36,235 nt of DNA from Candidatus Azambacteria bacterium RIFCSPHIGHO2_02_FULL_52_12. Its GTDB lineage: Bacteria; Patescibacteriota; Minisyncoccia; GWC2-36-17; WO2-46-25. The notes beneath the pieces are model-generated. The model ran no database searches. It was not told where the DNA came from and saw only the letters and a program-made list of their open reading frames with translations. Numbering within the stretch: the stretch's first letter is position 1; every line of letters starts with the position of its first letter. Of this stretch, positions 1,994-18,514 are shown piece after piece. Made by a program: the position numbers and the translations under genes. The stretch lies in contig MEYP01000006.1 of NCBI GenBank assembly GCA_001775835.1, positions 16,486 through 52,720 of the forward strand. Reading direction: 5' to 3'.

Positions 1994-3214
1994 TCAACTT
2001 CCAAACATGGTTTTATTGATATCACCCAAAGCGTCATACAGCACGCCGATGTCTTTTTTGGTGTTATAGATGTAGGGACTGATGCGGCAGGTCGCCGGAA
2101 CGCCGAGGAATTTGTGCAGGGGCATCGCGCAGTGGTTGCCCGCGCGCACGGCGATGTTTTGTTCATCCAGCAGGGAAGCGATATCGTGCGGATGGATGCC
2201 CTTGAGGTTGAACGCGACCGCGCCGCTTCGGCGCTTCATGTCTGTGGGACCGTAGACAGTCACGCCGGGGACCTGCCGCAATTTTTCCAGAGTGTACTGT
2301 GCAAGCTCTTTTTCATGGCGCTCGATGTTTTTCATGCCGATATGTTCCAGATAATCGACCGCCGCGCCCAAAGCGATGGCCGCTTCGATGGCGGGCGTCC
2401 CCGCTTCGAATTTCGCGGGCGCGTCGGCAAAGACGACGTTCGTTTCCGAAACCGAGCGTATCATCTCGCCGCCGCCCAAAAACGGGGGCAGGGAACCAAG
2501 ATATTTGTCTTTCATGTATAAAACGCCGATGCCGGTCGGCGCGAGCATTTTGTGCCCCGAAAACGCGTAAAAGTCGCAGTCCATCGCCGACACGTCCACG
2601 CTCATGTGCGGCACCGCCTGCGCGCCGTCAATCAGCGCGGGAATCCCGCGCGCGTGGAAAAATGAAACCAGGTCGCGCGCGGGGTTCACGGTGCCAAGCA
2701 CGTTGGAAACATGGGTGAACGCCGCCAATTTCACCTTCTTGGTCGCTTTTGCCACCAGATCTTTGGGGTCCAGCGTTCCGTCGCTTGTGATGCGTACAAA
2801 CCGCAGTTTCAGCTTCTTTTCTTTTGCGACCAGATACCACGGCACGATATTGGAGTGGTGCTCCATGACGGTCAGCAGGATTTCATCGCCCGCTTTCAGA
2901 TGGTGACGCGCGAAGCTCTGCGCCACCAGATTGACGGCCTCGGTCGTATTGCGGGTGAAAATGATGTTTCTCGCACCTTGCGCGCCGATGAAGCGGGCAA
3001 TCTTTGCGCGCGCTTCCTCGTAGTGCTTCGTCGCTTGTTCGCTCATTTCATAAATGCCCCGGTGGATGTTCGCGTTGGTGTTTTCATAATGCTTCACCAG
3101 CGCGTCTATCACCGCCTGCGGCTTTTGCGTCGTTGCGGCGCTGTCCAAATACACCAATTTAGGATTGGCTTTGAAAATAGGGAAGTCTTTTTTAATGGTG
3201 TTTTTGTTTATCAT
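1994..3214 (-). CDS. sufS: Cysteine desulfurase SufS (class V aminotransferase)
   Basis: The 406-aa ORF carries a PLP-lysine context (FSGHKMLAPTGIGVLY), the catalytic Cys loop (RAGNHCAMPL) and HHSNIVPW. Its start overlaps the sufD stop by 4 nt. Confidence 0.93.
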   Translation of the reverse strand: MINKNTIKKDFPIFKANPKLVYLDSAATTQKPQAVIDALVKHYENTNANIHRGIYEMSEQATKHYEEARAKIARFIGAQGARNIIFTRNTTEAVNLVAQSFARHHLKAGDEILLTVMEHHSNIVPWYLVAKEKKLKLRFVRITSDGTLDPKDLVAKATKKVKLAAFTHVSNVLGTVNPARDLVSFFHARGIPALIDGAQAVPHMSVDVSAMDCDFYAFSGHKMLAPTGIGVLYMKDKYLGSLPPFLGGGEMIRSVSETNVVFADAPAKFEAGTPAIEAAIALGAAVDYLEHIGMKNIERHEKELAQYTLEKLRQVPGVTVYGPTDMKRRSGAVAFNLKGIHPHDIASLLDEQNIAVRAGNHCAMPLHKFLGVPATCRISPYIYNTKKDIGVLYDALGDINKTMFGS

Positions 3215-3789
3215 GGCGTCAGAGCGAGAACATTGCTCATATCTTGGAAAAATCCGGCGACGCAGATTTTTTTCGCTTCTTTTTCGGAAAGCCCGCGCGA
3301 CCGCAGGTAAAACAGGTCCTTTGCGCTGACGCGCCCGATGCTCGAGCCGTGGCTTGCCTTCACTTCGTTTTGCAGTATCTCCAGGTCGGGCTTGATGAAC
3401 GCGCGCGCTTGTTCCGAAAGCAAGAGCGCTTTGGCGCCCAGTTTGGCATCGGCGTATTTCGCGCTTTTTTCGATGCGCACCGTGCCGTGAAACGTTACGC
3501 GCGACGAGTCTGCGAGCGCCCCTTTGAAATTCACGTTTGACGCCGTCCCTTCTGCTTTATGGACGATATCAAGCGCGATGTCCGTTTGCATGTCGCCCGA
3601 ACCTTTATATGCCCATAGTATTTCAACGGAGCTTTTTTTGCCCGCGAGCGTGACGGAAAGATGCATCTTTCTGGGCGCGTGCTTCTCAAAAAGAAAAACA
3701 AGGCGCCGCGCTTCGTTCGCTTTCGCAAGGACGATGGCATGCTCGAACGTTTCCGGCAGGGTATTTGAATGAATGGTAATATCTTGCAT
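3211..3789 (-). CDS. sufD: Short SufD-like Fe-S assembly protein (C-terminal half only)
   Basis: The 192-aa ORF matches the SufB/SufD C-terminal region (FHGTVRIEKSAKYADAKLGAKALLLSEQA...EILQNEVKASHGSSIGRVSAKDLFYLRSRGLSEKEAKK). Confidence 0.8.
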   Translation of the reverse strand: MQDITIHSNTLPETFEHAIVLAKANEARRLVFLFEKHAPRKMHLSVTLAGKKSSVEILWAYKGSGDMQTDIALDIVHKAEGTASNVNFKGALADSSRVTFHGTVRIEKSAKYADAKLGAKALLLSEQARAFIKPDLEILQNEVKASHGSSIGRVSAKDLFYLRSRGLSEKEAKKICVAGFFQDMSNVLALTP

Positions 3790-3810: not shown

Positions 3811-3845
3811 TTCTATTTTCTATTTTCTAAATTCTAGCTTCTATG
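3811..3845 (-). repeat. Heptad array (TAGAAnn) x5 in the sufB-sufD spacer
   Basis: The plus strand reads ttctatt ttctatt ttctaaa ttctagc ttctatg. On the mRNA strand this follows the sufB stop directly: TAG-CATAGAA GCTAGAA TTTAGAA AATAGAA AATAGAA. Confidence 0.9.
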
Positions 3846-8704: not shown

Positions 8705-9260
8705 GAAGCCATTTTACCGAAGCGACAAAGCCGACGATAAGCAGAACCCACACGACGAGCATGAGAAGCCCGCCGAACCATCCGGCGTGGCCGAAGCTGT
8801 ATGAAGGGCCATAGCCCATCATGCCCCACCCCCCGAAATGTCCGAATCCTCCGAACGAACCGCTGTGCATCATGGACATGAAATCACCGCTTCCCGCAGG
8901 ATATGCCGCGGTCATATCGCATCCGCTCATTTGTTTTCCCATCGCGGCATGCATCTCTTCTTCACCCTCTTTTCCCAGTCTTCGTTCTATCATTTCATTC
9001 ATGGCTTCGTGCGAGGAGCCCATCATCCGGCCCATGTAGTATTCTCCCAATGCCTCAAAATCTCCCTCGGACAGTTGAGCGCAGGTGATCTGCTTCGCCT
9101 GCAATTTTTCCCAGATTTCCTTGCCCTCCGCTTCTTCTTTTGCGGTATGGCCGTCCGTTTTTTCGCCATAGCCCATCATACCCATTTGCGCCGAACTTGG
9201 CGCGGCCGATACCGCGAAAACCCCCGCCAACAGCATTCCTAGAACGATGAAATATCTCAT
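8652..9260 (-). CDS. Met/His/Gly-rich exported, C-terminally anchored protein (putative metal-binding partner of the ATPase)
   Basis: The 202-aa ORF has a signal peptide (MRYFIVLGMLLAGVFAVSAAPSSA), M/H-rich stretches (QMGMMGYG, MMGSSHEAMNEM, FMSMMHSGSFGGFGHFGGWGMMGYG) and a C-terminal TM helix (LLMLVVWVLLIVGFV). The function is inferred. Confidence 0.6.
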   Translation of the reverse strand: MRYFIVLGMLLAGVFAVSAAPSSAQMGMMGYGEKTDGHTAKEEAEGKEIWEKLQAKQITCAQLSEGDFEALGEYYMGRMMGSSHEAMNEMIERRLGKEGEEEMHAAMGKQMSGCDMTAAYPAGSGDFMSMMHSGSFGGFGHFGGWGMMGYGPSYSFGHAGWFGGLLMLVVWVLLIVGFVASVKWLLAQTRSGDKKDDTHRQP

Positions 9261-9333
9261 AGTTTTCCGATTAATTGATTATAAAAAATATCCCCCTTCT
9301 AGTATACGCCCATTGACATATGATAGCAATGTA

Positions 9334-9463
9334 TTGACCCCTCACTTGGAAAGCGCTGCGCAAAGCGCAAACATGTTTTTTTAAAAAAAGAAGTATTGTT
9401 TTGCAAAACGGACTATGAAAGCATCAGCGTTGGTTGATTGCGCCTTCCAAGCGAGGGGTTGAC
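9334..9463 (+). repeat. 130-bp TTGA-flanked inverted-repeat element, copy A
   Basis: The structure is TTGA-CCCCTCACTTGGAAAG...CTTCCAAGCGAGGGG-TTGAC. The arms are 14 of 15 complementary. The right flank doubles as a -35 box. Confidence 0.85.
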
Positions 9464-9487
9464 TCGCTATTCGTCAAGTGCTATATT
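9459..9487 (+). promoter_or_regulatory. Sigma-70-type promoter with extended -10
   Basis: TTGACT (9459-9464), a 17-bp spacer, then TGc-TATATT (-10 at 9482-9487). Confidence 0.6.
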
Positions 9488-9558
9488 ACGGGGGTTGGCG
9501 AGGGATGATTCGTAGCTCGTTTACAACTGGTTTTCACTCAGGGAAAGGAGTGTGCGCC

Positions 9559-9717
9559 ATGCAATGTAACCGCTGCAAAGGTTTAATGGTTCGAGAGTGG
9601 GCTTCGGATTCAGAAGGAACCGCAGTTTGGATTGAATTGTGGGGCTGCATTTGTTGTGGAAATTATATAGACGAAAAAGTGATTTACAACAGAATGGATG
9701 TGAAGAATTTCAAATAG
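9559..9717 (+). CDS. Small zinc-ribbon protein (52 aa), hypothetical
   Basis: The start is the internal ATG of track ORF 9478..9717, preceded by the SD AAAGGAG (9544-9550). The product is MQCNRCKGLMV...WGCICCGNYIDE, with CxxC...CxxC. A strong terminator follows. Confidence 0.55.
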   Translation: MQCNRCKGLMVREWASDSEGTAVWIELWGCICCGNYIDEKVIYNRMDVKNFK

Positions 9718-9724
9718 TACCGAT

Positions 9725-9765
9725 AAAAGGGTCGTTTCGCTTTTTGAGCGAAACGACCCTTTTTG
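9725..9765 (+). terminator. Intrinsic terminator
   Basis: The stem is aaaagggtcgtttcgc / gcgaaacgaccctttt with loop tttttga. The T-run merges into the next -35 box. Confidence 0.75.
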
Positions 9766-9791
9766 ACATCTCACGTTTTTTATCGTAAGAA
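9763..9791 (+). promoter_or_regulatory. mnmA promoter
   Basis: TTGACA (9763-9768), a 17-bp spacer, then TAAGAA (9786-9791). The ATG is 9 nt downstream of the -10 box. Confidence 0.5.
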
Positions 9792-9800
9792 TAAAGCAGT

Positions 9801-10955
9801 ATGGAAGCGGCCGCAAAGAAAATTTTTGTAGCTATGTCGGGAGGCGTGGATAGCTCTGTTACTGCCGCTCTGCTTAAAGAGCAGGGGCGCGACGTAACAG
9901 GCATATTCATGAAGAACTGGTCTGACAGTGCGTTTTTGAAAGACACGACTATGTGCCCGTGGGTGGCGGACCAGGAAGATGCGCGCAAGGCGGCCGCGGT
10001 CATCGGCATTCCTTTGTATACGTTCGATTTTGAAAAAGAATATCGGGAAAAAGTCGTCGCGTATATGATAGCGGGATACAAGGCGGGGATTACGCCCAAC
10101 CCGGACGTGATGTGCAACAAGGAGATAAAGTTTGGACTGTTCTTACAAAAAGCGCTCGAGCTTGGCGCCGATTTTGTGGCGACCGGCCATTACGTCCGCC
10201 TTCGGCGGAATGACGAATTTCGAATTTCGAATTTCGAAATTGATTCAAAACTTAAAATTCAAAATTCAAAATTAGGTTGCCAGTTGTTACAAGCAAAAGA
10301 TCGAAATAAAGACCAATCTTATTTTTTGTGGACTCTTACGCAAGAACAGTTGAAATATTGCGTTTTTCCCATTGGAGAATATACCAAGCCGGAGGTGCGC
10401 GAGATGGCGCGGAAATACGGTTTGCATAACGCCCAGAAGAAAGACAGCCAGGGAGTGTGCTTCGTGGGCGACTTGGATGTGTTTGAATTTTTAAAGAGTC
10501 AAATCCCGACGCACAAGGGAAAGATCATGACCGCAAGCGGCAGGGAGGTCGGCGAGCACGAGGGTGTGGAATTTTACACTATCGGCCAGCGCCATGGCAT
10601 CGGTTCGCCTGGTGGCGGAACGGCGTATTATGTGGTTGGCAAGGATGCAAAGAAGAATATCTTGTATGTCGGCGAGGGCGCGGATGACAAAGAGCTCTAC
10701 GGCATGGCGCTTGAAGCCAGGGCAGCGCATTGGATTTCCGGCAACGAGCCAGAGTTGCCGTTACGCTGTGAAGCCAGAATACGGTATAGACAATCATTAC
10801 AGAAGTGTATTGTGAATTCTCTGTTTCATGTTTCACGTTTCATGTTTCACGTTGAGTTCGACGAGCCCCAGCGCGCTATCACGCCTGGCCAGTCTGTTGT
10901 TTTTTATGACGGGGATACGGTCCTTGGCGGTGCCGTAATCGTGCAAAAAGTTTGA
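9801..10955 (+). CDS. mnmA: tRNA 2-thiouridine(34) synthase MnmA
   Basis: The 384-aa ORF has the PP-loop (VAMSGGVDSSV), NPDVMCN, ATGHY, KDQSYFLW, DSQGVCF and the C-terminal AITPGQSVVFYDG. It contains two heptad-repeat tracts, listed separately. Confidence 0.93.
   Translation: MEAAAKKIFVAMSGGVDSSVTAALLKEQGRDVTGIFMKNWSDSAFLKDTTMCPWVADQEDARKAAAVIGIPLYTFDFEKEYREKVVAYMIAGYKAGITPNPDVMCNKEIKFGLFLQKALELGADFVATGHYVRLRRNDEFRISNFEIDSKLKIQNSKLGCQLLQAKDRNKDQSYFLWTLTQEQLKYCVFPIGEYTKPEVREMARKYGLHNAQKKDSQGVCFVGDLDVFEFLKSQIPTHKGKIMTASGREVGEHEGVEFYTIGQRHGIGSPGGGTAYYVVGKDAKKNILYVGEGADDKELYGMALEARAAHWISGNEPELPLRCEARIRYRQSLQKCIVNSLFHVSRFMFHVEFDEPQRAITPGQSVVFYDGDTVLGGAVIVQKV
10214..10276 (+). repeat. Nine 7-bp repeat units (63 bp, 21 codons) inside mnmA
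   Basis: The units read cgaattt x3, cgaaatt, gattcaa, aacttaa, aattcaa x2, aattagg. The tract is AT-rich compared with its flanks and encodes DEFRISNFEIDSKLKIQNSKL. Confidence 0.9.
10823..10853 (+). repeat. GTTTCAY heptad x4 inside mnmA
   Basis: The sequence gtttcat gtttcac gtttcat gtttcac gtt encodes FHVSRFMFHV. Confidence 0.9.
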
Positions 10956-11082
10956 CCCCATACTCAACAAGGATTGCCCCCTTGGCGCCAAGAGGTTTTT
11001 TTACTGTCAACAAGAAATAGCATAACAAGAATGTGCAAGACCAATTCATGAGGTAATTATCCTTGTTGAGTATGGGGTTGAC
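10952..11082 (+). repeat. 131-bp TTGA-flanked inverted-repeat element, copy C
   Basis: The structure is TTGA-CCCCATACTCAACAAGGAT...ATCCTTGTTGAGTATGGGG-TTGAC, a perfect 19-bp inverted repeat. The left TTGA contains the mnmA TGA stop. Internally there is a hairpin plus T7 (cccttggcgccaagagg-ttttttt) and arm-like copies at 11007-11016 and 11024-11032. Confidence 0.9.
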
Positions 11083-11105
11083 AAAGTATATAAAAAAAGT
11101 ATATT
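11078..11105 (+). promoter_or_regulatory. Promoter at the right end of element C
   Basis: TTGACA (11078-11083), a 16-bp spacer, then TATATT (11100-11105). Confidence 0.5.
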
Positions 11106-11159
11106 AGAGAACGGGTTGTTTTATGTTCATTTCATTTCTCACACAAGAGGAGGAGAATC

Positions 11160-11360
11160 GTGGAAACGATACCCTATGTGGTTTTAAAGCATGCTCATCT
11201 CATCGGAGATGAAGCATTTGTTTTGCGACGGTATCTGTTGTTCTTTCTTCCCGACTCGTTGCAGTATGTGGATGAAGAACAAGAGAAAAATCGTCAAAAA
11301 GCCCTTAATTGCAAGGAATGTTTCGAGGCGTTCGTCGAGGACTATAATCTTGGCGGTTAA
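11160..11360 (+). CDS. Hypothetical small protein (66 aa)
   Basis: A GTG start is preceded by a strong SD (GAGGAGGAG, 11147-11155) and followed by a strong terminator. I recognise no family. Confidence 0.5.
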   Translation: METIPYVVLKHAHLIGDEAFVLRRYLLFFLPDSLQYVDEEQEKNRQKALNCKECFEAFVEDYNLGG

Positions 11361-11385
11361 GCGGTTTTAAAGGGTATAACACAAC

Positions 11386-11420
11386 AGCGCCATGACGAAA
11401 TCTGTCGTGGCGCTTTTTTT
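11386..11420 (+). terminator. Intrinsic terminator
   Basis: The 11-bp stem is agcgccatgac / gtcgtggcgct with loop gaaatct, followed by T7. Confidence 0.8.
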
Positions 11421-11421
11421 A

Positions 11422-11450
11422 TTGCAATCATGGGAAAAATTTACTATGAT
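11422..11450 (+). promoter_or_regulatory. alaS promoter (leaderless geometry)
   Basis: TTGCAA (11422-11427), a 17-bp spacer, then TATGAT (11445-11450). The ATG at 11458 is 7 nt after the -10 box. Confidence 0.6.
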
Positions 11451-11457
11451 GGACGCT

Positions 11458-13404
11458 ATGACGACTAATGAAGTACGGCAGAAATTCCTTGAATTCTTCC
11501 GAGAAAAAGGGCATGCCGTCATTCCCTCGGCTCCGCTCGTGCCCGACGACAAAACGGTGCTGTTCGTGACGGCCGGCATGCAACCGCTGGTGCCGTATTT
11601 GATGGGGGAGAGAAAGCACCCGCAGGGCGCGCGGCTTGCCAACTCGCAGAAATGCCTTCGCACGGATGATATTTTAGAAGTGGGGGACAATCGCCACCTC
11701 ACATTCTTTGAAATGCTCGGCAACTGGTCGCTGGGGGACCCGTCCGAACCGGACGCCAGCCCGACAGGGTCATCCGCCCGGCCAGGCCATTCGGACGGGT
11801 TCCGGCGGGGTATCGGCCGGGCGGGCTATTTCAAAAAAGAGTCCATTGCGTGGAGTTTTGAGCTTTTGACGTCAAAAAAATGGTTCGGCATCGATCCCGA
11901 AAAACTGTATGTCACCGTGTTTGAAGGAGATGCGACAATGGGTATCGCGCGCGACGACGAATCTATCGGTTACTGGAAAGAAGCATTCAAAACCGCGGGC
12001 ATAGATGCGAGTTTGGAAAACGGGCGCATTTCCGCCTATCCCAAAAAGAAAAATTGGTGGGAACTTGCCGGGTCGGGACCATGCGGGCCGGATACGGAGA
12101 TTTTCTACGATATGGGAAAAGAACATGACCCGGTATTTGGCGAACAATGCCATGCGAACTGCGACTGCGGGCGGTTTGTGGAAATCTGGAACAATGTGTT
12201 CATGGAATACGAAAAAAAGGCGGACGGTCCGCCGGTTGGCGGAGGTGGATATTCGTATGTACCGCTCGCGCAGAAAAACGTGGATACCGGCATGGGTCTT
12301 GAGCGCATCACGATGGTTTTACAAGGCGTTGAAACGGTATTTGAGATAGATGTTTTTAAAAAAATCATCGGGAGCATAGAGACAAAAAAAGTCCCCTACG
12401 AGAAAGAAGCGCGAAGATATCGCATCATTGCTGATCATCTGCGCGCGGCGGTGTTTCTGATCTCTGACGGCGTTGCACCTTCGAATGTGGAGCGAGGATA
12501 TATTCTGCGCAGTCTTTTGCGGCGTGCAATAGCGCAGGCGAGGATTTTGAATTTGCCGTTGCGTGATTTTCCAGTGAAACCGATTGAAAGAACACGCGAG
12601 TACTATAAAGAAAATTACCGACTTTCCGCGCTGCCGGCGATTATTGATATTGTAAAAAAAGAATTTGACGCGTTTCTGACGGCATTTGAGAAAGGGAGAA
12701 AAGAGGTTTTACGCATTGTCGGGAAAATACCCGAGGGCGGCGTGATACCCGCCAGAGACGCGTTCAATCTTCATCAGACATACGGTTTTCGGATTGAGTT
12801 GATGATTGATCTGGCAAAAGATTCCGGGCATACCGTGGATGAAAAAGGGTTCTGGGAAGAATACAAAAAGCACCAGGAGATTTCCCGCGCGGGATCAGAG
12901 AAAAAATTCGGCGGGCATGGTTTAATGCTGCAGACCGGTGAGCTGAAAGCGGCTGATGAAGAAGAGTTGAAAAAAGTGACGCGCCTGCACACGGCGACGC
13001 ATCTTTTGCAGGCGGCTTTGCGCAGGGTTTTGGGCGACCACGTGCACCAGATGGGTTCGGACATCACGGCAGAACGCCTGCGGTTCGACTTTTCGCACCC
13101 GCAAAAAATGACGGATGAGGAAAAAAAGAAGGTGGAAGAGGTGGTGAATAAGGAAATCCAAAAAGGACACGCGATGACCCATAAGGAAATGCCGATTGAC
13201 GAAGCGGAAAAAACCGGCGCATTGATGTTTCAAAAGGAAAAATACGGGAAAACGGTGAAAGTATATTCGGCCGGAGATTTCTCCAAAGAGCTCTGCGGAG
13301 GACCGCATGTGGCGAACACGAAAGAAGTGGGAACATTCAAAATCCTCAAAGAAGAGGCATCTTCCGCCGGCGTTCGTCGCATCCGCGCAACAGTTGTTGA
13401 TTGA
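11458..13404 (+). CDS. alaS: Alanine--tRNA ligase, short form lacking the C-terminal C-Ala/DHHA1 region
   Basis: The start is moved to MTTNEVRQKFLEFFREKGH because track start 11392 lies inside the terminator stem. The ORF has FEMLGNWSLGD...YFKKE, the editing-domain motifs HTATHLLQAAL and CGGPHV, and ends at ...RRIRATVVD. It is 648 aa. Confidence 0.9.
   Translation: MTTNEVRQKFLEFFREKGHAVIPSAPLVPDDKTVLFVTAGMQPLVPYLMGERKHPQGARLANSQKCLRTDDILEVGDNRHLTFFEMLGNWSLGDPSEPDASPTGSSARPGHSDGFRRGIGRAGYFKKESIAWSFELLTSKKWFGIDPEKLYVTVFEGDATMGIARDDESIGYWKEAFKTAGIDASLENGRISAYPKKKNWWELAGSGPCGPDTEIFYDMGKEHDPVFGEQCHANCDCGRFVEIWNNVFMEYEKKADGPPVGGGGYSYVPLAQKNVDTGMGLERITMVLQGVETVFEIDVFKKIIGSIETKKVPYEKEARRYRIIADHLRAAVFLISDGVAPSNVERGYILRSLLRRAIAQARILNLPLRDFPVKPIERTREYYKENYRLSALPAIIDIVKKEFDAFLTAFEKGRKEVLRIVGKIPEGGVIPARDAFNLHQTYGFRIELMIDLAKDSGHTVDEKGFWEEYKKHQEISRAGSEKKFGGHGLMLQTGELKAADEEELKKVTRLHTATHLLQAALRRVLGDHVHQMGSDITAERLRFDFSHPQKMTDEEKKKVEEVVNKEIQKGHAMTHKEMPIDEAEKTGALMFQKEKYGKTVKVYSAGDFSKELCGGPHVANTKEVGTFKILKEEASSAGVRRIRATVVD
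11740..11826 (+). repeat. 87-bp GC-rich palindromic element translated in-frame within alaS
   Basis: It encodes PSEPDASPTGSSARPGHSDGFRRGIGRAG between the GD and YFK residues. It has interleaved perfect 10-bp inverted repeats at 11739-48 / 11790-99 and 11774-83 / 11815-24. Its core resembles the reverse complement of the 61-bp element at 14011 and 14728. Confidence 0.85.
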
Positions 13405-13426
13405 AGACGCTATAGTGTGGTATATT
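13397..13426 (+). promoter_or_regulatory. hicBA promoter (leaderless geometry)
   Basis: TTGATT (13397-13402), an 18-bp spacer, then TGg-TATATT (13421-13426). The ATG at 13433 is 6 nt after the -10 box. The -35 region overlaps the alaS stop. Confidence 0.55.
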
Positions 13427-13432
13427 TTATCT

Positions 13433-13651
13433 ATGAAACAGGAATTTACAGCGGTCTATAAAAAGAGCGGAAAGTGGTACGTGGGGTGGGTGGAAGAGGT
13501 TTCCGGCGTGAATACGCAGGGGAAAACGCTCAAGGAAACAAAGGAAAATCTCCGCGAGGCGCTTTCTTTGGTGCTTGAGACGAACCGGATGTTGAGCAGA
13601 ATAGACGGGCGTCGGGCGATACGCGAACCGATCAGCGTTTTTGCGCGATGA
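13433..13651 (+). CDS. hicB: HicB-like antitoxin (72 aa)
   Basis: The start is the internal ATG of track ORF 13307..13651. MKQEFTAVYKKSGKWYVGWVEEVSGVNTQGKTLKETKENLREALSL fits the HicB/UPF0150 N-terminal fold pattern. An ATGA overlap couples it to hicA. Confidence 0.7.
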   Translation: MKQEFTAVYKKSGKWYVGWVEEVSGVNTQGKTLKETKENLREALSLVLETNRMLSRIDGRRAIREPISVFAR

Positions 13652-13842
13652 AGCGGGGAGATCTGATTTCGCATCTTGTACGCGAAGGATGCGTATTCAT
13701 CAGGGAGGGCGCTCGCCATAGCGTCTTTTTTAATCCGTTTACCAGGCGGACCTCCACGGTACCGCGGCATACGGAAGTAAATGACTTTCTTGCGCGGAAA
13801 ATTTGCCGCGATTTGGGCGTTGATAATGTGCGGAAAAAGTAG
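13648..13842 (+). CDS. hicA: HicA-family mRNA interferase toxin (64 aa)
   Basis: MKRGDLISHLVREGCVFIREGARHSVFFNP...TVPRHTEVNDFLARKICRDLGV matches the HicA pattern (G-x-H ... VP-x-H). Confidence 0.8.
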   Translation: MKRGDLISHLVREGCVFIREGARHSVFFNPFTRRTSTVPRHTEVNDFLARKICRDLGVDNVRKK

Positions 13843-13863
13843 TTGCGATGGTGATTTAACATT

Positions 13864-15096
13864 ATGCCTTTCATTGAACGAAAAGAATTTCAAAAATATC
13901 AGGAAACGATCATGGTTGCCGTATACAGTGACAGGGTTTCCGCGTATGCGATAGGGAAAAATGCGGCCGGATACAACATTGTCGCCGGCGCGACCGAAGA
14001 ACAGGAAGAAGCCCGCCTGAACCCCGTCCGAACGGATGTTCATCCGGGCGGGGATCCAATGGTCGGGCAGGGAGAATTAAATACGGGAAAAATAAAACTT
14101 AACTGCCAGAAGGCGCTGCAGCGGCTCCCGCGCGAACACATGAAAAGCGGTATGCCCGTCGTCTTCGCGCTGGGGCCGGGCGCTTCGGAATGCGCTTTTG
14201 TATCGATCGATGCGCGGCGCGAACAGAAAGACGCGATCATTTCCGAAAGCGAAGTGAAGTCCATTATCGAGAGATCGTACGGCCTTAAGGCATCCGAAAG
14301 CGGCAAGGCATCCCTCAATGTTCCCGCGGGTTTTCTTGTGGACGGATTCTCGGTGCCTGACCCCGTCGGTTTGAACGGCCAGAATATCACCGTCAATCTG
14401 GTCAGCGTCAGCGCTTCCCGGGCGCTCGAAGAATCGTTTTCCGACATCGCGTCGTCGTACGGCTTGCGGTATGGCGGCATGGTCAATATATGCGGCATGC
14501 TTGCCGATGCCATGCCGTTATTCACGCAGGATGCCGATTGCGTGGCGATGCTCGTTTTCGAGCGGGAGATCATTCTGGCGCTCGTGCGCGGGAAAAAAAT
14601 ATCCGCCATTGGAAAAGCGGACGGCGGATATGGTATACTAGAACAAGAAGCGGCACGATCGTTTTCGGTAGGAATCGAGGAGGCGAAGAATATTTTGCGC
14701 GCGTTCGAGAAAAAACAGACGGATGCCGCCCGCCTGAACCCCGTCCGAACGGATGTTCATCCGGGCGGGGATCCAATGGTCGGGCAGGCCGTCGCGGAAA
14801 AGATAAACGAGCTGTCCGCGCGCGTCGTTTCCGACATCGCGCGGCGCATCGGATCGGCGCTTCCCAAGCTTGATTTTGAACATCTGATTCCCGCGACATT
14901 CCTGGTTGCGCAGTTCGGAAATCTTTCGCACCTGTCGCAGGCGTTGATCGACAACCCGACCTGGCTTGCCCAGGCGCCGGTCGCGAGAAACGCAGGGGTC
15001 GCGCGCATGAGCCCGCTCAAACAGAACATTCAGGACGACAAAAAAGTGCTCGCGGACGGCGATGCATACATACTAACCGCGCTTATGCGATCATGA
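13864..15096 (+). CDS. FtsA/PilM-like actin-fold protein (degenerate nucleotide-binding motifs)
   Basis: The 410-aa ORF has segments resembling FtsA (VNLVSVSASRALEESFSDIASSYGLRYGGMVNICGMLADA; GGYGILEQEAARSFSVGIEEAKNIL). The phosphate-binding DxGGG-type motifs are not evident. It contains two identical 61-bp inserts. Confidence 0.5.
   Translation: MPFIERKEFQKYQETIMVAVYSDRVSAYAIGKNAAGYNIVAGATEEQEEARLNPVRTDVHPGGDPMVGQGELNTGKIKLNCQKALQRLPREHMKSGMPVVFALGPGASECAFVSIDARREQKDAIISESEVKSIIERSYGLKASESGKASLNVPAGFLVDGFSVPDPVGLNGQNITVNLVSVSASRALEESFSDIASSYGLRYGGMVNICGMLADAMPLFTQDADCVAMLVFEREIILALVRGKKISAIGKADGGYGILEQEAARSFSVGIEEAKNILRAFEKKQTDAARLNPVRTDVHPGGDPMVGQAVAEKINELSARVVSDIARRIGSALPKLDFEHLIPATFLVAQFGNLSHLSQALIDNPTWLAQAPVARNAGVARMSPLKQNIQDDKKVLADGDAYILTALMRS
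14011..14071 (+). repeat. 61-bp GC-rich palindromic element, copy 1 (in-frame)
   Basis: The sequence is gcccgcctgaaccccgtccgaacggatgttcatccgggcggggatccaatggtcgggcagg. It encodes ARLNPVRTDVHPGGDPMVGQ and is identical to 14728-14788. Confidence 0.95.
14728..14788 (+). repeat. 61-bp GC-rich palindromic element, copy 2 (in-frame)
   Basis: It is a perfect copy of 14011-14071, lying 717 bp (239 codons) downstream in the same gene. The flanks are unrelated. Confidence 0.95.
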
Positions 15097-16814
15097 AAAA
15101 AATACTCTACGTACATCCCGACGAAACCATCGCCTATCTCATTGACCGGATGGAAAATACCGATTCGGATACGCTTTTTATCGTCGCGGACGCCAACGCC
15201 GCGCTCTTTATGGATTCGGTGAACCTGAAATTGCTCAAGCGCGAAGCGGACGGATTCCGCAAGCAATGCGTCATCGTTTCCCAAGCCCCGGCTGTTCTCG
15301 CCATGGCGCGCGAGGCCGGGTTTGACACATCGTCGGAAGATATCGCTCCTGAAGAGTCCGGGTACCCGCCCGTACCGAATGAGTACGTTCGGGCGGGCGG
15401 CGTGCAGCATGAAGTACCCAGTTCGACGGATTCGGCGGGCTCACTGCAGGCGGAATCGGAAGAAGAAGTGCCGGTGCATGTCCGGTCCAGCGCTCCCGAG
15501 AGCGGTCTTTCCATGGCTTCCGGGCGTTTTGTTTCGCATGACGCGCCACCCTCCGGCACAGAGGCCGATGAAGAGATGCATTATGAGAACAGCCCCGAAG
15601 AATCCGAAGAAGCGGGAGCGGGTGGTGCGCGCGACTATCGTGACGCCCGAAAAGGGGCGCCCGGCATGCCGCTCAACTGGAAATTCCTTGGCGCGACGCT
15701 CGCGGGGGTGCTTGTCGTCGCTGTCGCCGGTTTCTATCTTTTTTCCCCTAAGCTGTCCGTTTCCATCGTTCCCAAGAAAGAAACGCTGAATTTTGATTTT
15801 CAGGTGGTTGGCGACCTTGCGTTGTCGAGCGTTAATCTGACGAAAGCGCGCATCCCCGGGCAGGTCGTCACCATCGCGCAAGAGCAATCCGATTCGTTTC
15901 CCGCTACGGGAAAACAAGACAAAGAAACCAAGGCGGAAGGGGAGATCGTTATTTACAACGCGTTCGGCGCGGGCATCCAGACGCTGGTGAAAAATACCCG
16001 TTTCAAAGCGAAAGACGGCAAGTTGTTCCGCCTGGTGAGCGCGGTGACGGTTCCCGGCGCGAAGATGGAAGGAGGGAAAGTCGCCACGCCGGGCACGGTG
16101 AACGCGCGCGTTGTGGCAGACCAGCCGGGCGCGGCGTACAATATCGATCCGACTGATTTTTCAATACCCGGATTTCAGGATACTCCCAAGTTCCTCGGTT
16201 TTTACGGGAAATCAACCAAGCCCATGAGCGGAGGCGGTTCAAGCAACGCGCGGTTCGCCACTCGGGAAGATCTGGACAAAGCGAAGGCGGCGCTTTCCGA
16301 TGCTCTTGCCAAAAGCGCCCAAAGCCATGTCGCGTCGCAGATTCCCAAAGGGCTCAAGGCCGTTTCCGAGGCATTCGCACAGGAGGCGCCCCAGTTGACT
16401 CCCGGTTCGGTTGACGCGGACGGGATGTTCAAAGCGACGCTCAAAACGACCTATACCATTTTCGCTTTTTCCGAGAATGATATCATCGCGCTGATAGACC
16501 ATACGGTATCGGGAAGGATCTCGGAACGGCGCAAGGCCATCCCGGAGACGCGCGTTATTTCTTATGTCGATGAAGTCGTCAGTCAGGACAAAAAGTCGTT
16601 CTCGTTTACGGCAAAAATAAGCGAGCTGGTGCTTGGCATCATAGACCACAACGACATGCGGCTCCTGTTGGCGGGCAAAAACGAGTCGGAGATCAGGCAG
16701 ATACTGGGCGCCAATGAATCCATTGAGGGAGCGGAAATAACGTTTTGGCCGTTGTGGGCTTCGGCGGCTCCGGCAAACCCCGACATGATAAAGGTTTTTG
16801 TGGATGAGTCTTGA
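15093..16814 (+). CDS. Single-pass membrane protein with acidic linker and large extracytoplasmic domain, hypothetical
   Basis: The 573-aa ORF is coupled by an ATGA overlap to the FtsA-like gene. It has an N-terminal cytoplasmic domain, a low-complexity E/S/P-rich linker, one TM helix (LGATLAGVLVVAVAGFYLF) and about 350 aa outside. Confidence 0.75.
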   Translation: MKKILYVHPDETIAYLIDRMENTDSDTLFIVADANAALFMDSVNLKLLKREADGFRKQCVIVSQAPAVLAMAREAGFDTSSEDIAPEESGYPPVPNEYVRAGGVQHEVPSSTDSAGSLQAESEEEVPVHVRSSAPESGLSMASGRFVSHDAPPSGTEADEEMHYENSPEESEEAGAGGARDYRDARKGAPGMPLNWKFLGATLAGVLVVAVAGFYLFSPKLSVSIVPKKETLNFDFQVVGDLALSSVNLTKARIPGQVVTIAQEQSDSFPATGKQDKETKAEGEIVIYNAFGAGIQTLVKNTRFKAKDGKLFRLVSAVTVPGAKMEGGKVATPGTVNARVVADQPGAAYNIDPTDFSIPGFQDTPKFLGFYGKSTKPMSGGGSSNARFATREDLDKAKAALSDALAKSAQSHVASQIPKGLKAVSEAFAQEAPQLTPGSVDADGMFKATLKTTYTIFAFSENDIIALIDHTVSGRISERRKAIPETRVISYVDEVVSQDKKSFSFTAKISELVLGIIDHNDMRLLLAGKNESEIRQILGANESIEGAEITFWPLWASAAPANPDMIKVFVDES

Positions 16815-16940
16815 CCCCTCACTTGGAAAGGATATTTGATGGGAATATGCCGTAATACACTTAACGTTTTTGACTAACGTATTTTGGGAACTTGGAAGGC
16901 ATGTCGCTTTGCGACAATCCTTTCCAAGTGAGGGGTTGAC
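16811..16940 (+). repeat. 130-bp TTGA-flanked inverted-repeat element, copy B
   Basis: The structure is TTGA-CCCCTCACTTGGAAAGGAT...ATCCTTTCCAAGTGAGGGG-TTGAC, a perfect 19-bp inverted repeat. The left TTGA contains the TGA stop of the upstream gene. An internal third arm-like copy, ACTTGGAAGG, lies at 16890-16899. Confidence 0.9.
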
Positions 16941-16978
16941 TTCTTTTCTATAATTTGTTACAAAGGATAGGCTCGTAT

Positions 16979-17197
16979 ATGGTACAAGAAAACATTCGCC
17001 AAGAAGGCGTGGTCCAGGAGAATCTGCCCAATACCCTTTTTCGCGTCAAGTTTCCCGATGAGACGGTCATCCTCGCTCATCTTTCCGGCAGAATGCGGCT
17101 GCATTACATCAAAATTTTGCCCGGCGACAGGGTTATCGTGGAAATAACCCCCTACGACAAAACAAAAGGAAGGATAGTGCAACGACTCAAACAATAA
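16979..17197 (+). CDS. infA: Translation initiation factor IF-1
   Basis: The 72-aa product starts at the internal ATG at 16979 ([25 protein letters not shown]...GRIVQRLKQ). AAAGGA lies upstream. Confidence 0.93.
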
Positions 17198-17279
17198 AAA
17201 GAGCAGAAGCAGGAGACGACATTTCCGGAAAAACCGGGGATGTCGCAAAATTATCGTTGTCAAGTTACAATGTCCCGTC

Positions 17280-17393
17280 ATGAAAATCAGAGCATCCGTA
17301 AAAAAAATATGCGCGAAGTGCAAATCTGTGCGAAGGTTCGGAAGGATCTATGTGCTCTGCGCGAATCCAAAACATAAACAAAGACAGAAATAG
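17280..17393 (+). CDS. rpmJ: 50S ribosomal protein L36
   Basis: This ORF is too short for the ORF track. Hand translation gives [37 protein letters not shown] (37 aa). The stop TAG is the first unit of the heptad array. Confidence 0.9.
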
Positions 17394-17473
17394 AAACTAG
17401 AAATTAGAAAGTAGAATCTAGAACTAAGGAGTCCAAACTTCTATTTTCTAGATTCTAGCTTCTAGATTCCACA
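17391..17473 (+). repeat. Heptad palindrome: (TAGAAnn)x5, a spacer containing AAGGAG, then (TTCTAnn)x4-5
   Basis: The sequence is tagaaac tagaaat tagaaag tagaatc tagaact | aaggagtccaaac | ttctatt ttctaga ttctagc ttctaga ttccaca. For example, tagaatctagaa pairs perfectly with ttctagattcta. Confidence 0.9.
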
Positions 17474-17476
17474 ACT

Positions 17477-17863
17477 ATGCCCAGAATCGCCGGTATAAAC
17501 ATACCCGATAACAAACGAATAGAAATAGCGCTTGCCTATATTTACGGCATCGGCCCGACATTGGGGACGCACATCGTCACCCAGGTTGGCGTCGACCCGA
17601 ACAAGCGGGCCAACAAGCTGACCGCCGAAGAGCTCAACCGCATCAAAGAGTACATCGAAAAGCATTACAAGATAGAAGGGGATCTGAAGCGCGAGATTAT
17701 GCTGAACGTCAAACGGCTGAAAGACATCAAGGCGTATCGTGGCGTTCGGCACATGCGCGGGCTTCCCGTGCGGGGCCAGCGGACCAAAACCAATTCACGA
17801 ACGCGCCGTGGCAACACGAGAAAGACGGCGGGATCGGGAAGGAGATCGGTTGATAAGAAATAA
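17477..17863 (+). CDS. rpsM: 30S ribosomal protein S13
   Basis: The 128-aa ORF begins MPRIAGINIPDNKRIEIALAYIYGIGP and contains YRGVRHMRGLPVRGQRTKTN. Confidence 0.95.
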   Translation: MPRIAGINIPDNKRIEIALAYIYGIGPTLGTHIVTQVGVDPNKRANKLTAEELNRIKEYIEKHYKIEGDLKREIMLNVKRLKDIKAYRGVRHMRGLPVRGQRTKTNSRTRRGNTRKTAGSGRRSVDKK

Positions 17864-18017: not shown

Positions 18018-18473
18018 ATGGGAAAGAAGAAAATAACAACGCAGAACGAAGCGCAGATGTTGAAAGAAACAGGAGCCCTTGAAACGGCGTCTAAGAAAGT
18101 CGCGGCCGCGCCCGCCTCAAGCAAACGTTTCATAAAAAGCGGCAAAGCATACGTGCAGGCGACCTACAACAATACCATCGTATCGTTGACGGATGATGCG
18201 GGCAACGTGCTTGGCTGGGCGTCCGCGGGTTCCATGGGATTTAAAGGAGCGAAAAAATCGACGCCGTTCGCCGCGTCCAAAGTCGTTGAAGCGGTGGTGG
18301 AAAAGGGAAAGAAGGCCGGCATGCAGGATGTCGCGGTTTATGTGAAAGGCATCGGTTCAGGCAGAGAATCGGCCGTCCGGTCCCTCGCTACCCATCTTAA
18401 TCTGTCCAGCATAACGGACGTGACCCCCATCCCGCATAACGGATGCCGGCCGCCGAAAGTCAGGAGAGTATAA
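18018..18473 (+). CDS. rpsK: 30S ribosomal protein S11 (N-terminally extended)
   Basis: The 151-aa ORF contains [18 protein letters not shown] and ends [20 protein letters not shown]. Confidence 0.93.
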
Positions 18474-18514
18474 CAGAAATAGAAACTAGAATTTAGAAAA
18501 TAGAAACTAGAATA
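18473..18514 (+). repeat. Heptad array (TAGAAnn)x5-6 filling the rpsK-rpsD spacer
   Basis: The sequence is acagaaa tagaaac tagaatt tagaaaa tagaaac tagaatATG. The last unit overlaps the rpsD start, and there is no SD. Confidence 0.9.

Follow-up and report, generated by a model that had tools for sequence, protein, structure and literature searches.

Bacteria of the candidate phyla radiation (CPR, or Patescibacteria) have tiny, streamlined genomes, in which classical mobile elements are considered scarce. Among described non-coding hairpin elements, Correia (Neisseria), ERIC (enterobacteria) and RUP (Streptococcus pneumoniae) are miniature inverted-repeat transposable elements (MITEs) of 100–150 bp with TA duplications and an origin from DDE insertion sequences that have the same ends. 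For the CPR themselves Tsurumaki et al. 2024 (PMC11270868), who also summarise 23S rRNA intervening sequences, report rRNA genes whose GIY-YIG open reading frames (ORFs) lie in insertions belonging to neither the group I nor the group II introns and without signs of homing to a specific site, together with many further short (<200 bp), ORF-less and "uncharacterized" insertions; terminal hairpins, flank repeats, promoter insertions and tRNA cargo are not described there, and the strings "hairpin" and "palindrom" occur 0 times. Here we analyse a stretch of 36,235 nucleotides (the window) from Candidatus Azambacteria bacterium RIFCSPHIGHO2_02_FULL_52_12 (contig MEYP01000006.1), and within it a segment directly upstream of infA (window 16811–16940) that we call copy B, two further copies, A and C, lying upstream of it. 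Copy B is very probably a non-autonomous mobile DNA element of 121 bp with perfect 19-bp inverted ends and a 4-bp TTGA direct repeat, inserted at the TTGAC of infA and belonging to a Patescibacteria-wide family of hairpin-ended elements. In these ultra-small bacteria the family is apparently undescribed, and no published description of the element was found in the literature on CPR MITEs, CPR tRNA introns, nested tRNAs or inverted-repeat GIY-YIG elements.

Like Correia, ERIC and RUP, the family combines small size and terminal inverted repeats, which fold up as one long hairpin, with short flank duplications, an intergenic position by genes and promoters, many copies and presence/absence polymorphism; it differs from them in its 4-bp, mostly TTGA flank, in inner arms that vary freely provided they pair, in its GIY-YIG coding relatives and in its tRNA cargo. 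Copy B itself is non-coding and shorter than 300 bp, has terminal inverted repeats and a flank repeat of fixed length, occurs in multiple copies and is present or absent at an orthologous site. As to an autonomous partner, longer elements with the same ends encode a GIY-YIG nuclease and not a recognised transposase, and copy B thus qualifies as a MITE in all respects but this one. Three classes of cargo occur in the family: short non-coding interiors, often with the hairpin TGCGCC-AAA-GGCGCA and comprising all window copies, a gene for an 84-aa GIY-YIG nuclease (elements of ~280–293 bp), and a complete tRNA gene.

On the + strand copy B reads cTTGA / CCCCTCACTTGGAAAGGAT / 83 nt / ATCCTTTCCAAGTGAGGGG / TTGAC, with CCCC and GGGG as its termini (coordinates in Table 1), and its arms are 100% complementary over 19 bp, or over 20 nt when the repeat finder includes the flanking A/T pair. 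The first-pass annotation, made from the letters alone, had described just such a TTGA-flanked element with perfect 19-bp arms and an 83-nt interior, whose left TTGA supplies the TGA stop of the upstream gene, and coordinates, complementarity and stop codon were all verified. Synteny around copy B is conserved in relatives, and two of these, L002 (58% identity ortholog) and L003 (53%), have an empty orthologous junction, gagtcTTGACtt...ataatttgttacaaagg, to be compared with the filled site gagtcTTGA[121 bp]TTGACttcttttctataatttgttacaaagg. The junction between the upstream 5xx-aa gene and infA measures 38–40 bp in both relatives (...aatgagtcTTGACtt(c/a)...(g/t)ataatttgttacaaaggataagc) and holds a single TTGAC where copy B is flanked by two TTGA, so that the window junction is, to the base, the empty-site sequence plus 125 bp (the 121-bp element and a second TTGA). 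TTGAC-only junctions, which the first-pass annotation had thought worth looking for in related genomes, therefore exist at infA in two of them, and copy B is an insertion into a pre-existing overlap of stop codon and −35 box. Because the empty sites of L002 and L003 already possess it, this overlap is native to the infA junction and neither signal stems from the element; with TTGA on both sides after insertion, the stop codon (left) and the promoter (right) both survive. The sequence 3′ of TTGACT (tataatttgttacaaagg) is kept in relatives. The right flank fails a sigma-70 consensus scan, yet is conserved in relatives.

In the closest relative, L001 (72% identity ortholog), the hairpin at this junction is another one: it too runs from CCCC to GGGG around a loop of 83 nt, but its arms are CCCCGTTACAATCC. 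This hairpin belongs to another arm subfamily, which indicates independent colonisation of one hot spot. The right arm is followed there by a 10-bp tandem duplication (GTAACGGGGT twice; L001 5627–5660) and then by the TTGAC of the infA promoter, and the left flank is TTAA, the upstream gene stopping at this place with TAA, not TGA. Within copy B, the internal "third arm" proposed at first reading (ACTTGGAAGGCAT) is real, being identical to the left arm at 11/13 positions (shuffle p ~0.01); the alternative hairpin it could form is much weaker than the main stem, both as DNA (−13.6 vs −28.1 kcal/mol) and as RNA (−27.3 vs −50.6 kcal/mol), and is not conserved in the family.

The pattern TTGACCCC-N(100–130)-GGGGTTGA matches the window three times, all on the + strand (9334–9462, 10952–11081 and 16811–16939), and matches 0/100 dinucleotide shuffles. 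These three copies have arms of 19–20 bp, interiors of 83–84 nt, TTGA on both sides and element lengths of 121–122 bp, and thus include the two further TTGA-flanked copies, equal in length within 1 bp, that the first-pass annotation had pointed out. Copy C, whose left TTGA (10952–10955) holds the TGA stop of mnmA (9801–10955), has perfect arms (CCCCATACTCAACAAGGAT) of 19/20 nt, for which the repeat finder gives a pair at 10955–11078, 84 nt apart, and it contains an internal hairpin followed by T7. Its arms differ from those of copy B at 6/19 positions, all compensated. Copy A lies in a divergent intergenic region and shares its outer 16 nt with copy B; its arms have two A–C mismatches (17/19 paired), and the claim that all arm differences are compensated accordingly holds for B against C but not fully for A. 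Within 9200–17500 the two best sigma-70-type matches begin exactly at right flanks, that of copy C scoring 11/12 and that of copy A 10/12. A further 6.2 kb of the source genome contained no new copy, giving 3 copies in 42 kb.

A scan of a genome collection, made with a pattern lacking the TTR prefix, returned mostly chance matches or an unrelated Fimbriiglobus repeat, and members were kept by arm pairing. It recovered copies in Moranbacteria, Parcubacteria and other Patescibacteria metagenome-assembled genomes (MAGs), with arms of approximately CCCCGCACTAACTTTTG; these members carry a left TTGA flank though the left flank was unspecified in the pattern. The unrelated repeat, of ~110 bp with ends gctcaaCCCCAGGCTAATGGCT...GGGGttgagcg, was set aside as a chance pick-up, its TCAA/TTGA flanks being part of the inverted repeat. 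In metagenomes, a scan that fixed only the outer ten bases of each arm, with the flanks left free, gave at least 120 further loci, whereas the same flank-free arm pattern had 0 matches in viral contigs. The multiple copies foreseen by the first-pass annotation are thus found many times over in related genomes and metagenomes, and the density of the family in element-bearing loci, beyond the copy searched for, is ~1 per 20 kb.

Identical 4-mers on both sides were present in 39/101 distinct elements among the matches listed, where chance would give ~0.4: TTGA in 25, TTCA in 7, CAAG in 2, and CTAG, CTTG, TAAA, TGTG and ATAT in 1 each. L081 has TTAA/TTAA. The remaining 62/101 listed elements have non-identical flanks, so that duplication is not universal; that the 4-mer on the left co-varies with that on the right fits a target-derived duplication. 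In the unbiased subset among the matches listed, C follows TTGA in 19/23 vs 15% at other TTGA sites of the same loci, and TAnnnT lies 16–18 nt downstream in 17/23 vs a 5% background. Judged by these sequence features, the preferred TTGA sites are genuine −35 boxes. Survivorship must account for part of this promoter bias, because 125 added bases would not be tolerated at a TTGA within a coding sequence; an active promoter preference of insertion is possible. Three loci deserve separate mention: elements at L127 9314–9441 (flanks TGTG/TGTG) and L131 13329–13460 (CGTG left, TGTG right) abut TGTGGATAAC, a DnaA-box-like sequence, and at L010 1454–1473 (the same in L132) a solo arm abuts a full element via a shared TTGA, with the look of a tandem or nested insertion.

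The first-pass annotation had proposed a test for covariation, and the arms of the family covary strongly. Pairing, taken over 64 distinct arm pairs, holds for 93.8% of cells vs 70.6% after shuffling, changes on both sides occur at 15/19 positions, and 240 double-change cells stand against 13 one-sided ones. CCCC/GGGG is the sole invariant part of the arms; positions 5–11 form a few subfamilies (GCACTAA, GTTAG/C, TCACTTG, ATACTCA), and positions 12–19 vary freely between copies and stay complementary within each. One-sided G–U changes are rare, nearly all changes being Watson–Crick doubles, and the tRNA-carrying copies, for which the sense strand is known, have 4 G–U and 4 A–C in their arms; an RNA-strand signature was sought in these numbers and not found, G–U being as rare as A–C. 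Double changes with few G–U argue against an ordinary RNA helix under selection and for complementarity at the DNA level. The pairing favours a situation in which only copies with intact stems are mobile, or in which the arms are homogenised against each other, and the ends seem to act as a recognised shape rather than a recognised sequence. The interiors are not conserved across the family. In the window, the interior of A(+) is similar to C(+) (z = 5.1) and to B(−) (z = 3.1), the interior of copy B thus being inverted relative to A and C, and in the subfamily with the TGCGCC-AAA-GGCGCA hairpin, to which the window copies belong, the interior lies about equally often in either orientation relative to TTGA→TTGAC. 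No tRNA and no Rfam match lies in the interior of copy B. Rfam gave 0 window matches at the gathering score and none to the elements even at E ≤ 5, and ARAGORN called no tRNA in the window; a known RNA family (tRNA, Y RNA, SRP RNA and ribozymes included) was rejected on these grounds. Empty sites, copies, co-varying flanks, both orientations and arm covariation together bear out the MITE-like alternative of the first-pass annotation, with a 4-bp TTGA duplication at TTGAC.

The longer members, of 278–293 bp, share arms and flank type with the short ones and encode a stand-alone GIY-YIG nuclease of 84 aa, wedged between housekeeping genes. The nuclease has >300 close homologs, of which those with names are from Parcubacteria, Moranbacteria and Patescibacteria and many lie on very short contigs. 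Homologs at 58–80% identity were fetched from six independent places and all are bracketed by the same arms, and an identical nuclease protein occurs at two unrelated places within one assembly. The TAG stop of the nuclease ORF falls inside the conserved arm segment AAGTTAGTGCGGGG, which accounts for the conservation of that segment. A variant nuclease in L189 is combined with the other arm subfamily, so that arm type and nuclease type go together. A homolog (55%) beside rRNA genes in L252 has no arms, and distant GIY-YIG homologs (38–52% identity) without CCCC arms adjoin tRNA genes or fragments, some of them with the palindrome TCCGCCAGCYGGCGGA. The 84-aa protein consists of a catalytic domain and nothing more; among solved structures the UPF0213 protein BH0048 (1ZG2) comes nearest, though only weakly (E 0.08), and in NCBIfam the similarity to UvrC and to group I intron endonucleases stayed below threshold. 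I-TevI, the T4 Seg proteins and other homing endonucleases, whether free-standing or intron-borne, have DNA-binding domains, one cognate site and neither inverted ends nor flank repeats, and T4 SegB targets a tRNA gene region. The long elements share with them a small, selfish nuclease gene between housekeeping genes; their bare domain, 19–20-bp inverted ends and several unrelated sites led us to reject the assignment as homing endonuclease genes. We take the window copies to be short relatives, without coding capacity, of the nuclease-carrying element.

A third group is associated with stable-RNA genes. Of ~200 CCCC...GGGG hairpins in the fetched loci ~40 enclose a complete tRNA (Pro, Glu, Ile, Leu, Arg, Gly, Ala, Val or Ser), on contigs that are bacterial by their RecG, RelA/SpoT, MltG, RNase J and MiaB genes. 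These hairpins sit within other tRNA genes, with entry points in the D-loop, at 33/34 and on the 3′ side of the anticodon loop. Thus in L149 TTTA and then a hairpin with tRNA-Leu(CAA) stand between the D-loop and the 3′ D-stem of a well-formed outer tRNA-Leu(CAA), which also holds a second hairpin followed by CAGG, and in L159 TTTA and a hairpin with tRNA-Pro(CGG) stand between U33 and C34 of an outer tRNA-Pro(CGG). Automated excision restored the outer tRNA in 11/33 cases, with the cargo anticodon matching in 10/11, to which 2 manual cases can be added. The gene was restored when 4 nt on one side (TTTA, CTTG, CAGG or CAAG) were removed together with the hairpin, and it follows that one flank 4-mer is brought in and the target is not duplicated; among the tRNA insertions L199 only has CTTG on both sides. 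Outer genes often hold two or three hairpins, which is why excision of a single hairpin gave poor models for the tRNA-Leu insertions, and ARAGORN does not call the interrupted outer genes.

Two explanations of the anticodon match can be offered. An insertion may survive only if its cargo replaces the single-copy tRNA gene that it destroys, dead outer genes then gaining more insertions, or the outer tRNA genes may be functional, with the hairpins removed at the RNA level, which, if true, would mean an unknown RNA-level removal of hairpin insertions in bacteria. The evidence on the fate of the interrupted tRNAs is mixed: L149 and L159 have intact outer stems, and between organisms the inner copies have diverged about as far as the outer ones, while the outer anticodon loops are damaged in L227 and L183. 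Intervening sequences are removed by RNase III and the tRNA introns of Thermoproteales by the bulge-helix-bulge (BHB) endonuclease. The hairpins described here resemble both in being insertions in stable-RNA genes, at several tRNA positions, and differ from the Thermoproteales introns in their bacterial hosts, in the lack of an evident BHB motif and in carrying a second tRNA with the same anticodon. An arms-only hairpin of 36 nt (CCCCGCACT...AGTGCGGGG) stands beside a 3′ fragment of tRNA-Leu at L010 2725–2760 (the same in L132); since this fragment is all that adjoins it and excision restores no tRNA, it was rejected as a tRNA intron. Single elements also occur in a 16S rRNA gene and in a 23S–5S spacer (Table 1); the hairpin seen in the L219 16S gene is no family member but that gene's natural V3 helix. 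The GIY-YIG and short ORF-less rRNA insertions of PMC11270868 come from the same bacterial group and recall the 16S and 23S–5S elements found here, and by this analogy our family plausibly overlaps with them.

Taken together, these observations suggest the following model. Insertion at a TTGA shared by stop codon and −35 box would be nearly neutral, with both signals retained, and copies would for this reason accumulate at such sites. The GIY-YIG nuclease would work in trans on the ends, reading CCCC(G)CAC together with the hairpin or cruciform shape, and joining would proceed with a 4-nt stagger such that an element can bring along the 4-mer of its previous site. Where the carried 4-mer equals that of the target, as with TTGA at −35 boxes, a duplication would appear, and where it does not, as in the tRNA-gene insertions, the flanks would be non-identical. 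A carried-over 4-mer would in this way reconcile the 39% of elements with identical and the 61% with non-identical flanks. Staggered joints with a retained overhang are known in similar form from the coupling sequences of Tn916 and the ends of piggyBac. Derivatives with tRNA cargo would stay harmless by bringing a replacement tRNA with the same anticodon, an alternative to intron or intein splicing. As regards the nuclease, its identification as the mobilising enzyme of this model from sequence associations has about an even chance of being right. We consider it possible, though somewhat doubtful, that we are dealing with a class of minimal autonomous element of ~290 bp, consisting of an 84-aa nuclease between 19–20-bp hairpin ends, acting by structure-guided cutting and joining, with non-coding derivatives on −35 TTGA sites and self-complementing tRNA derivatives. 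The chance is substantial that the entire family represents a new class of minimal nuclease-driven mobile element.

Several points weigh against a mobile family of this kind. Base-precise empty sites are available for copy B only. At the copy C junction the relatives have short mnmA–alaS spacers (60–67 bp) from which the element is absent, and TTGA with it, and an empty-site alignment of copies A and C was abandoned, the relatives being too diverged and their junctions short, element-free and not base-alignable. The copy number of the source genome (3) is known for 42 kb only, and neither the 36-kb window nor the extra 6 kb contains a nuclease gene or an autonomous copy. None of the nuclease-carrying copies found has the window arm variant (CCCCTCACTTGG / CCCCATACTCAA), and between short and long members no homology was seen beyond the arms and the small hairpin. 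To our knowledge no GIY-YIG enzyme acts as a transposase, typical GIY-YIG homing enzymes leave 2-nt and not 4-nt overhangs, and the nuclease could be just another passenger. Finally, perfect stems despite large divergence could also mean selection for a hairpin at the level of the host.

The passenger view is most concrete if the family is mobile and moved by an unseen conventional enzyme, either a DDE transposase of piggyBac/IS1380 type or a tyrosine recombinase with a 4-bp core, and the nuclease travels like the tRNAs do. piggyBac has TTAA flanks and CCC...GGG termini. Our elements resemble it in a flank spectrum of approximately TTNA (TTGA, TTCA, TTTA, TTAA; CAAG, CTAG and TGTG occur besides) and in termini of the form CCC(C)...(G)GGG, a retained 4-nt flank would explain the carried 4-mers (the likeness being one of resemblance only), one-sided carriage suits staggered-cut enzymes or coupling sequences of Tn916 type in general, and the hairpins tolerate varied cargo. 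Yet they are an order of magnitude smaller than piggyBac/IS1380, and no DDE transposase, or any other transposase or recombinase gene, was seen between arms in ~0.94 Mb of element-bearing loci. In these loci, which do not amount to an exhaustive genome search, no gene other than GIY-YIG lies between arm pairs as protein cargo, and the nuclease recurs at no fewer than six independent places and in two arm subfamilies, its type tracking arm type. No long-range arm pair was found to enclose a transposase; one in L151, with a LuxR-type regulator between its arms, probably represents two separate elements. Moreover, arm positions 12–19 are variable yet paired, unlike what sequence-specific binding by a transposase would produce, and we judge a conventional enzyme to be unlikely, if well worth keeping in mind. 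A single-strand element of REPIN/PATE type, moved by a HUH/Y1 enzyme (RAYT or IS200/IS605 TnpA-type) that cuts beside a specific tetranucleotide, would likewise be a hairpin-forming, non-autonomous intergenic repeat recognised by structure and a short adjacent sequence; recognition here is seemingly by hairpin shape plus a short terminal sequence, the 4-mer travels with the hairpin on one side, and a related Azambacteria-like contig, L256, has a Y1_Tnp gene. REP (repetitive extragenic palindromic) units are short palindromes with a 5′ tetranucleotide of GTAG type and without flank duplication, and they flank the RAYT gene, whereas the present arms are non-palindromic and 39/101 listed copies have identical flanks. 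The L256 gene, which codes for 222 aa (HUH, RAYT-like) at 2800–3640 directly upstream of mnmA, has inverted copies of another repeat, TGGGGACACC, on its two sides, and no Y1 gene was found adjoining or inside any element, so that a REPIN–RAYT origin is improbable and was rejected.

The remaining explanation, raised as a second reading by the first-pass annotation, denies mobility and sees in the segment a structured module selected by the host between a gene end and the next promoter, that is, an insulator or terminator, an RNase III site or an upstream promoter element. Stems that are perfect in spite of 6/19 differences between copies would suit it, as would the position of the element, which always abuts a −35 box, the small hairpin followed by a T run in copies A and C directly after the upstream gene or arm, and the folding of the strands of all window copies far beyond shuffles (z −4 to −8). 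The element is, however, absent from the orthologous infA promoter of two relatives, where stop and −35 overlap directly; its interior is unconserved, free in polarity and without Rfam match, and copy B lacks the T run. G–U and A–C mismatches are equally rare and double changes far exceed one-sided ones, and tRNAs and a nuclease gene are enclosed by these same ends, which are found within tRNA and rRNA genes too. As the primary nature of the element a host-selected module is accordingly highly improbable, and the mobile reading is preferred. Two narrower assignments were discarded as well: an intrinsic terminator, the main stem being 19 bp with an 83-nt loop and no T run (hairpin plus T occurs only inside A and C), and an integron attC site, which would have an inverse core RYYYAAC and a core GTTRRRY at the ends of an imperfect hairpin, the left end gtcTTGACCCC having no AAC inverse core and the flanks being direct, not inverted, repeats.

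Table 1. Positions of the elements and associated features (window coordinates unless a locus, L, is named).
Feature	Position	Strand	Remarks
Copy B, left TTGA flank	16811–16814	+	holds TGA stop (16812–16814) of ORF 15093–16814
Copy B, left terminal arm CCCCTCACTTGGAAAGGAT	16815–16833	.	100% complementary to right arm; family covariation
Copy B, interior, 83 nt	16834–16916	.	non-coding
Copy B, "third arm" ACTTGGAAGGCAT	16890–16902	+	partial direct copy of left arm
Copy B, small internal hairpin TGTCGC-AAA-GCGACA	16902–16916	−	subfamily signature beside one arm
Copy B, right terminal arm ATCCTTTCCAAGTGAGGGG	16917–16935	.	pairs fully with left arm
Copy B, right TTGA flank + CT = TTGACT	16936–16941	+	native −35-like hexamer upstream of infA
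infA (IF-1)	16979–17197	+	downstream of copy B; PF01176, E 1e-24
Copy A	9334–9462	+	TTGA 9334–9337; element 9338–9458; TTGA 9459–9462
Copy A, small hairpin TGCGC-AAA-GCGCA	9357–9369
Promoter-like TTGACT-17-TATATT with TG	9459–9487	+	begins at copy A right flank; 10/12 match
Copy C	10952–11081	+	TTGA 10952–10955; element 10956–11077; TTGA 11078–11081
Promoter-like TTGACA-16-TATATT	11078–11105	+	begins at copy C right flank; 11/12
TGCGCC-AAA-GGCGCA hairpin	L010, L016, L042, L127, L139, L157, L196, L198, L215		also in window copy A
Nuclease element, 289 bp	L133 5140–5428		TCAA/TCAA flanks, 19–20-bp arms, 84-aa ORF; PF01541, E 9e-13
Nuclease element	L244/L245 2472–2762		L245 TTGA/TTGA then TTGACT...TATACT; L244 flanks non-identical
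Nuclease element	L247 872–1157		L247–250 between rpsP and rplJ, directly before TTGACA-17-TATAAT
Nuclease element	L251 2473–2762		TTGA/TTGA then TTGACG-17-TATAAT
Nuclease element	L189 2380–2657		nuclease variant at 42% identity; other arm subfamily CCCCGTTAG / CCCCGTTAGAAAT
Arm-less distant GIY-YIG homologs	L139 3420–3840; L245 1327–1680; L127 10290–10690; L152 1950–2330
Nested tRNAs	L149 5547–5868; L159 8448–8672		also L162, L164, L199, L208, L212, L216
Element in 16S rRNA gene	L165 2034–2145		~112 nt extra within model positions 1–408
Element in 23S–5S spacer	L229 5063–5189
Unrelated ~110-bp repeat gctcaaCCCCAGGCTAATGGCT	L034, L056, L065, L067, L068, L072, L101		Fimbriiglobus MAGs; also L073, L038, L023
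CTAGAA/TTCTAG-rich hairpins	3811–3844; 17384–17469; 18473–18512

The genes of the window are housekeeping genes (the suf operon, a P-type ATPase, mnmA, alaS, two unknown genes, infA, rpsM, and rpsK onward), and no transposase, recombinase or nuclease gene was found in its 36 kb. The stretch between copy C and alaS (11160–11414) contains a 66-aa ORF, which public annotation likewise calls as a gene, and a strong terminator-like hairpin with T7 after it (11386–11414); the hairpin overlaps the first ATG of the long alaS ORF, whose start is placed later in the public annotation (648–652 aa); ORF and hairpin may form a leader or attenuator. The annotation has, between alaS and the gene that follows it, a HicA toxin paired with a UPF0150 (HicB-like) antitoxin (~13400–13860; L258 1402–1811). 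A second, unrelated repeat family consists of the CTAGAA/TTCTAG-rich hairpins, up to 94% similar, after sufD, infA and rpsK, which may be terminator-like elements; an analogous AT-rich hairpin block stands at L001 5385–5525. Two hairpin-forming repeats of 45 nt, 96% identical (AATCGTACACAA...TTGTGTACGATT; 30154–30198 and 30793–30837), bracket ORF 30219–30776, and a 68-nt direct repeat, also 96% identical (14004–14071 and 14721–14788) and with a GC-rich palindrome, lies in ORF 13864–15096; its likeness to mraW RNA in Rfam, seen on both strands, is weak and below threshold (E ~2).

At ~1 copy per 12–20 kb the family would be a major overlooked component of CPR genomes and a likely cause of their fragmented assemblies. 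Insertion at the first four bases of a −35 box that overlaps a stop codon would mean that extreme gene packing creates neutral landing pads for such elements. The nested tRNAs of the same anticodon matter for annotation, and for how a selfish element can invade essential single-copy genes without splicing, and the family may explain part of the short uncharacterized and the non-intron GIY-YIG insertions in CPR rRNA genes. If an 84-aa GIY-YIG nuclease and two 20-bp hairpin ends suffice for movement, these elements would be among the smallest self-mobilising DNA units and would represent new transposition biochemistry.

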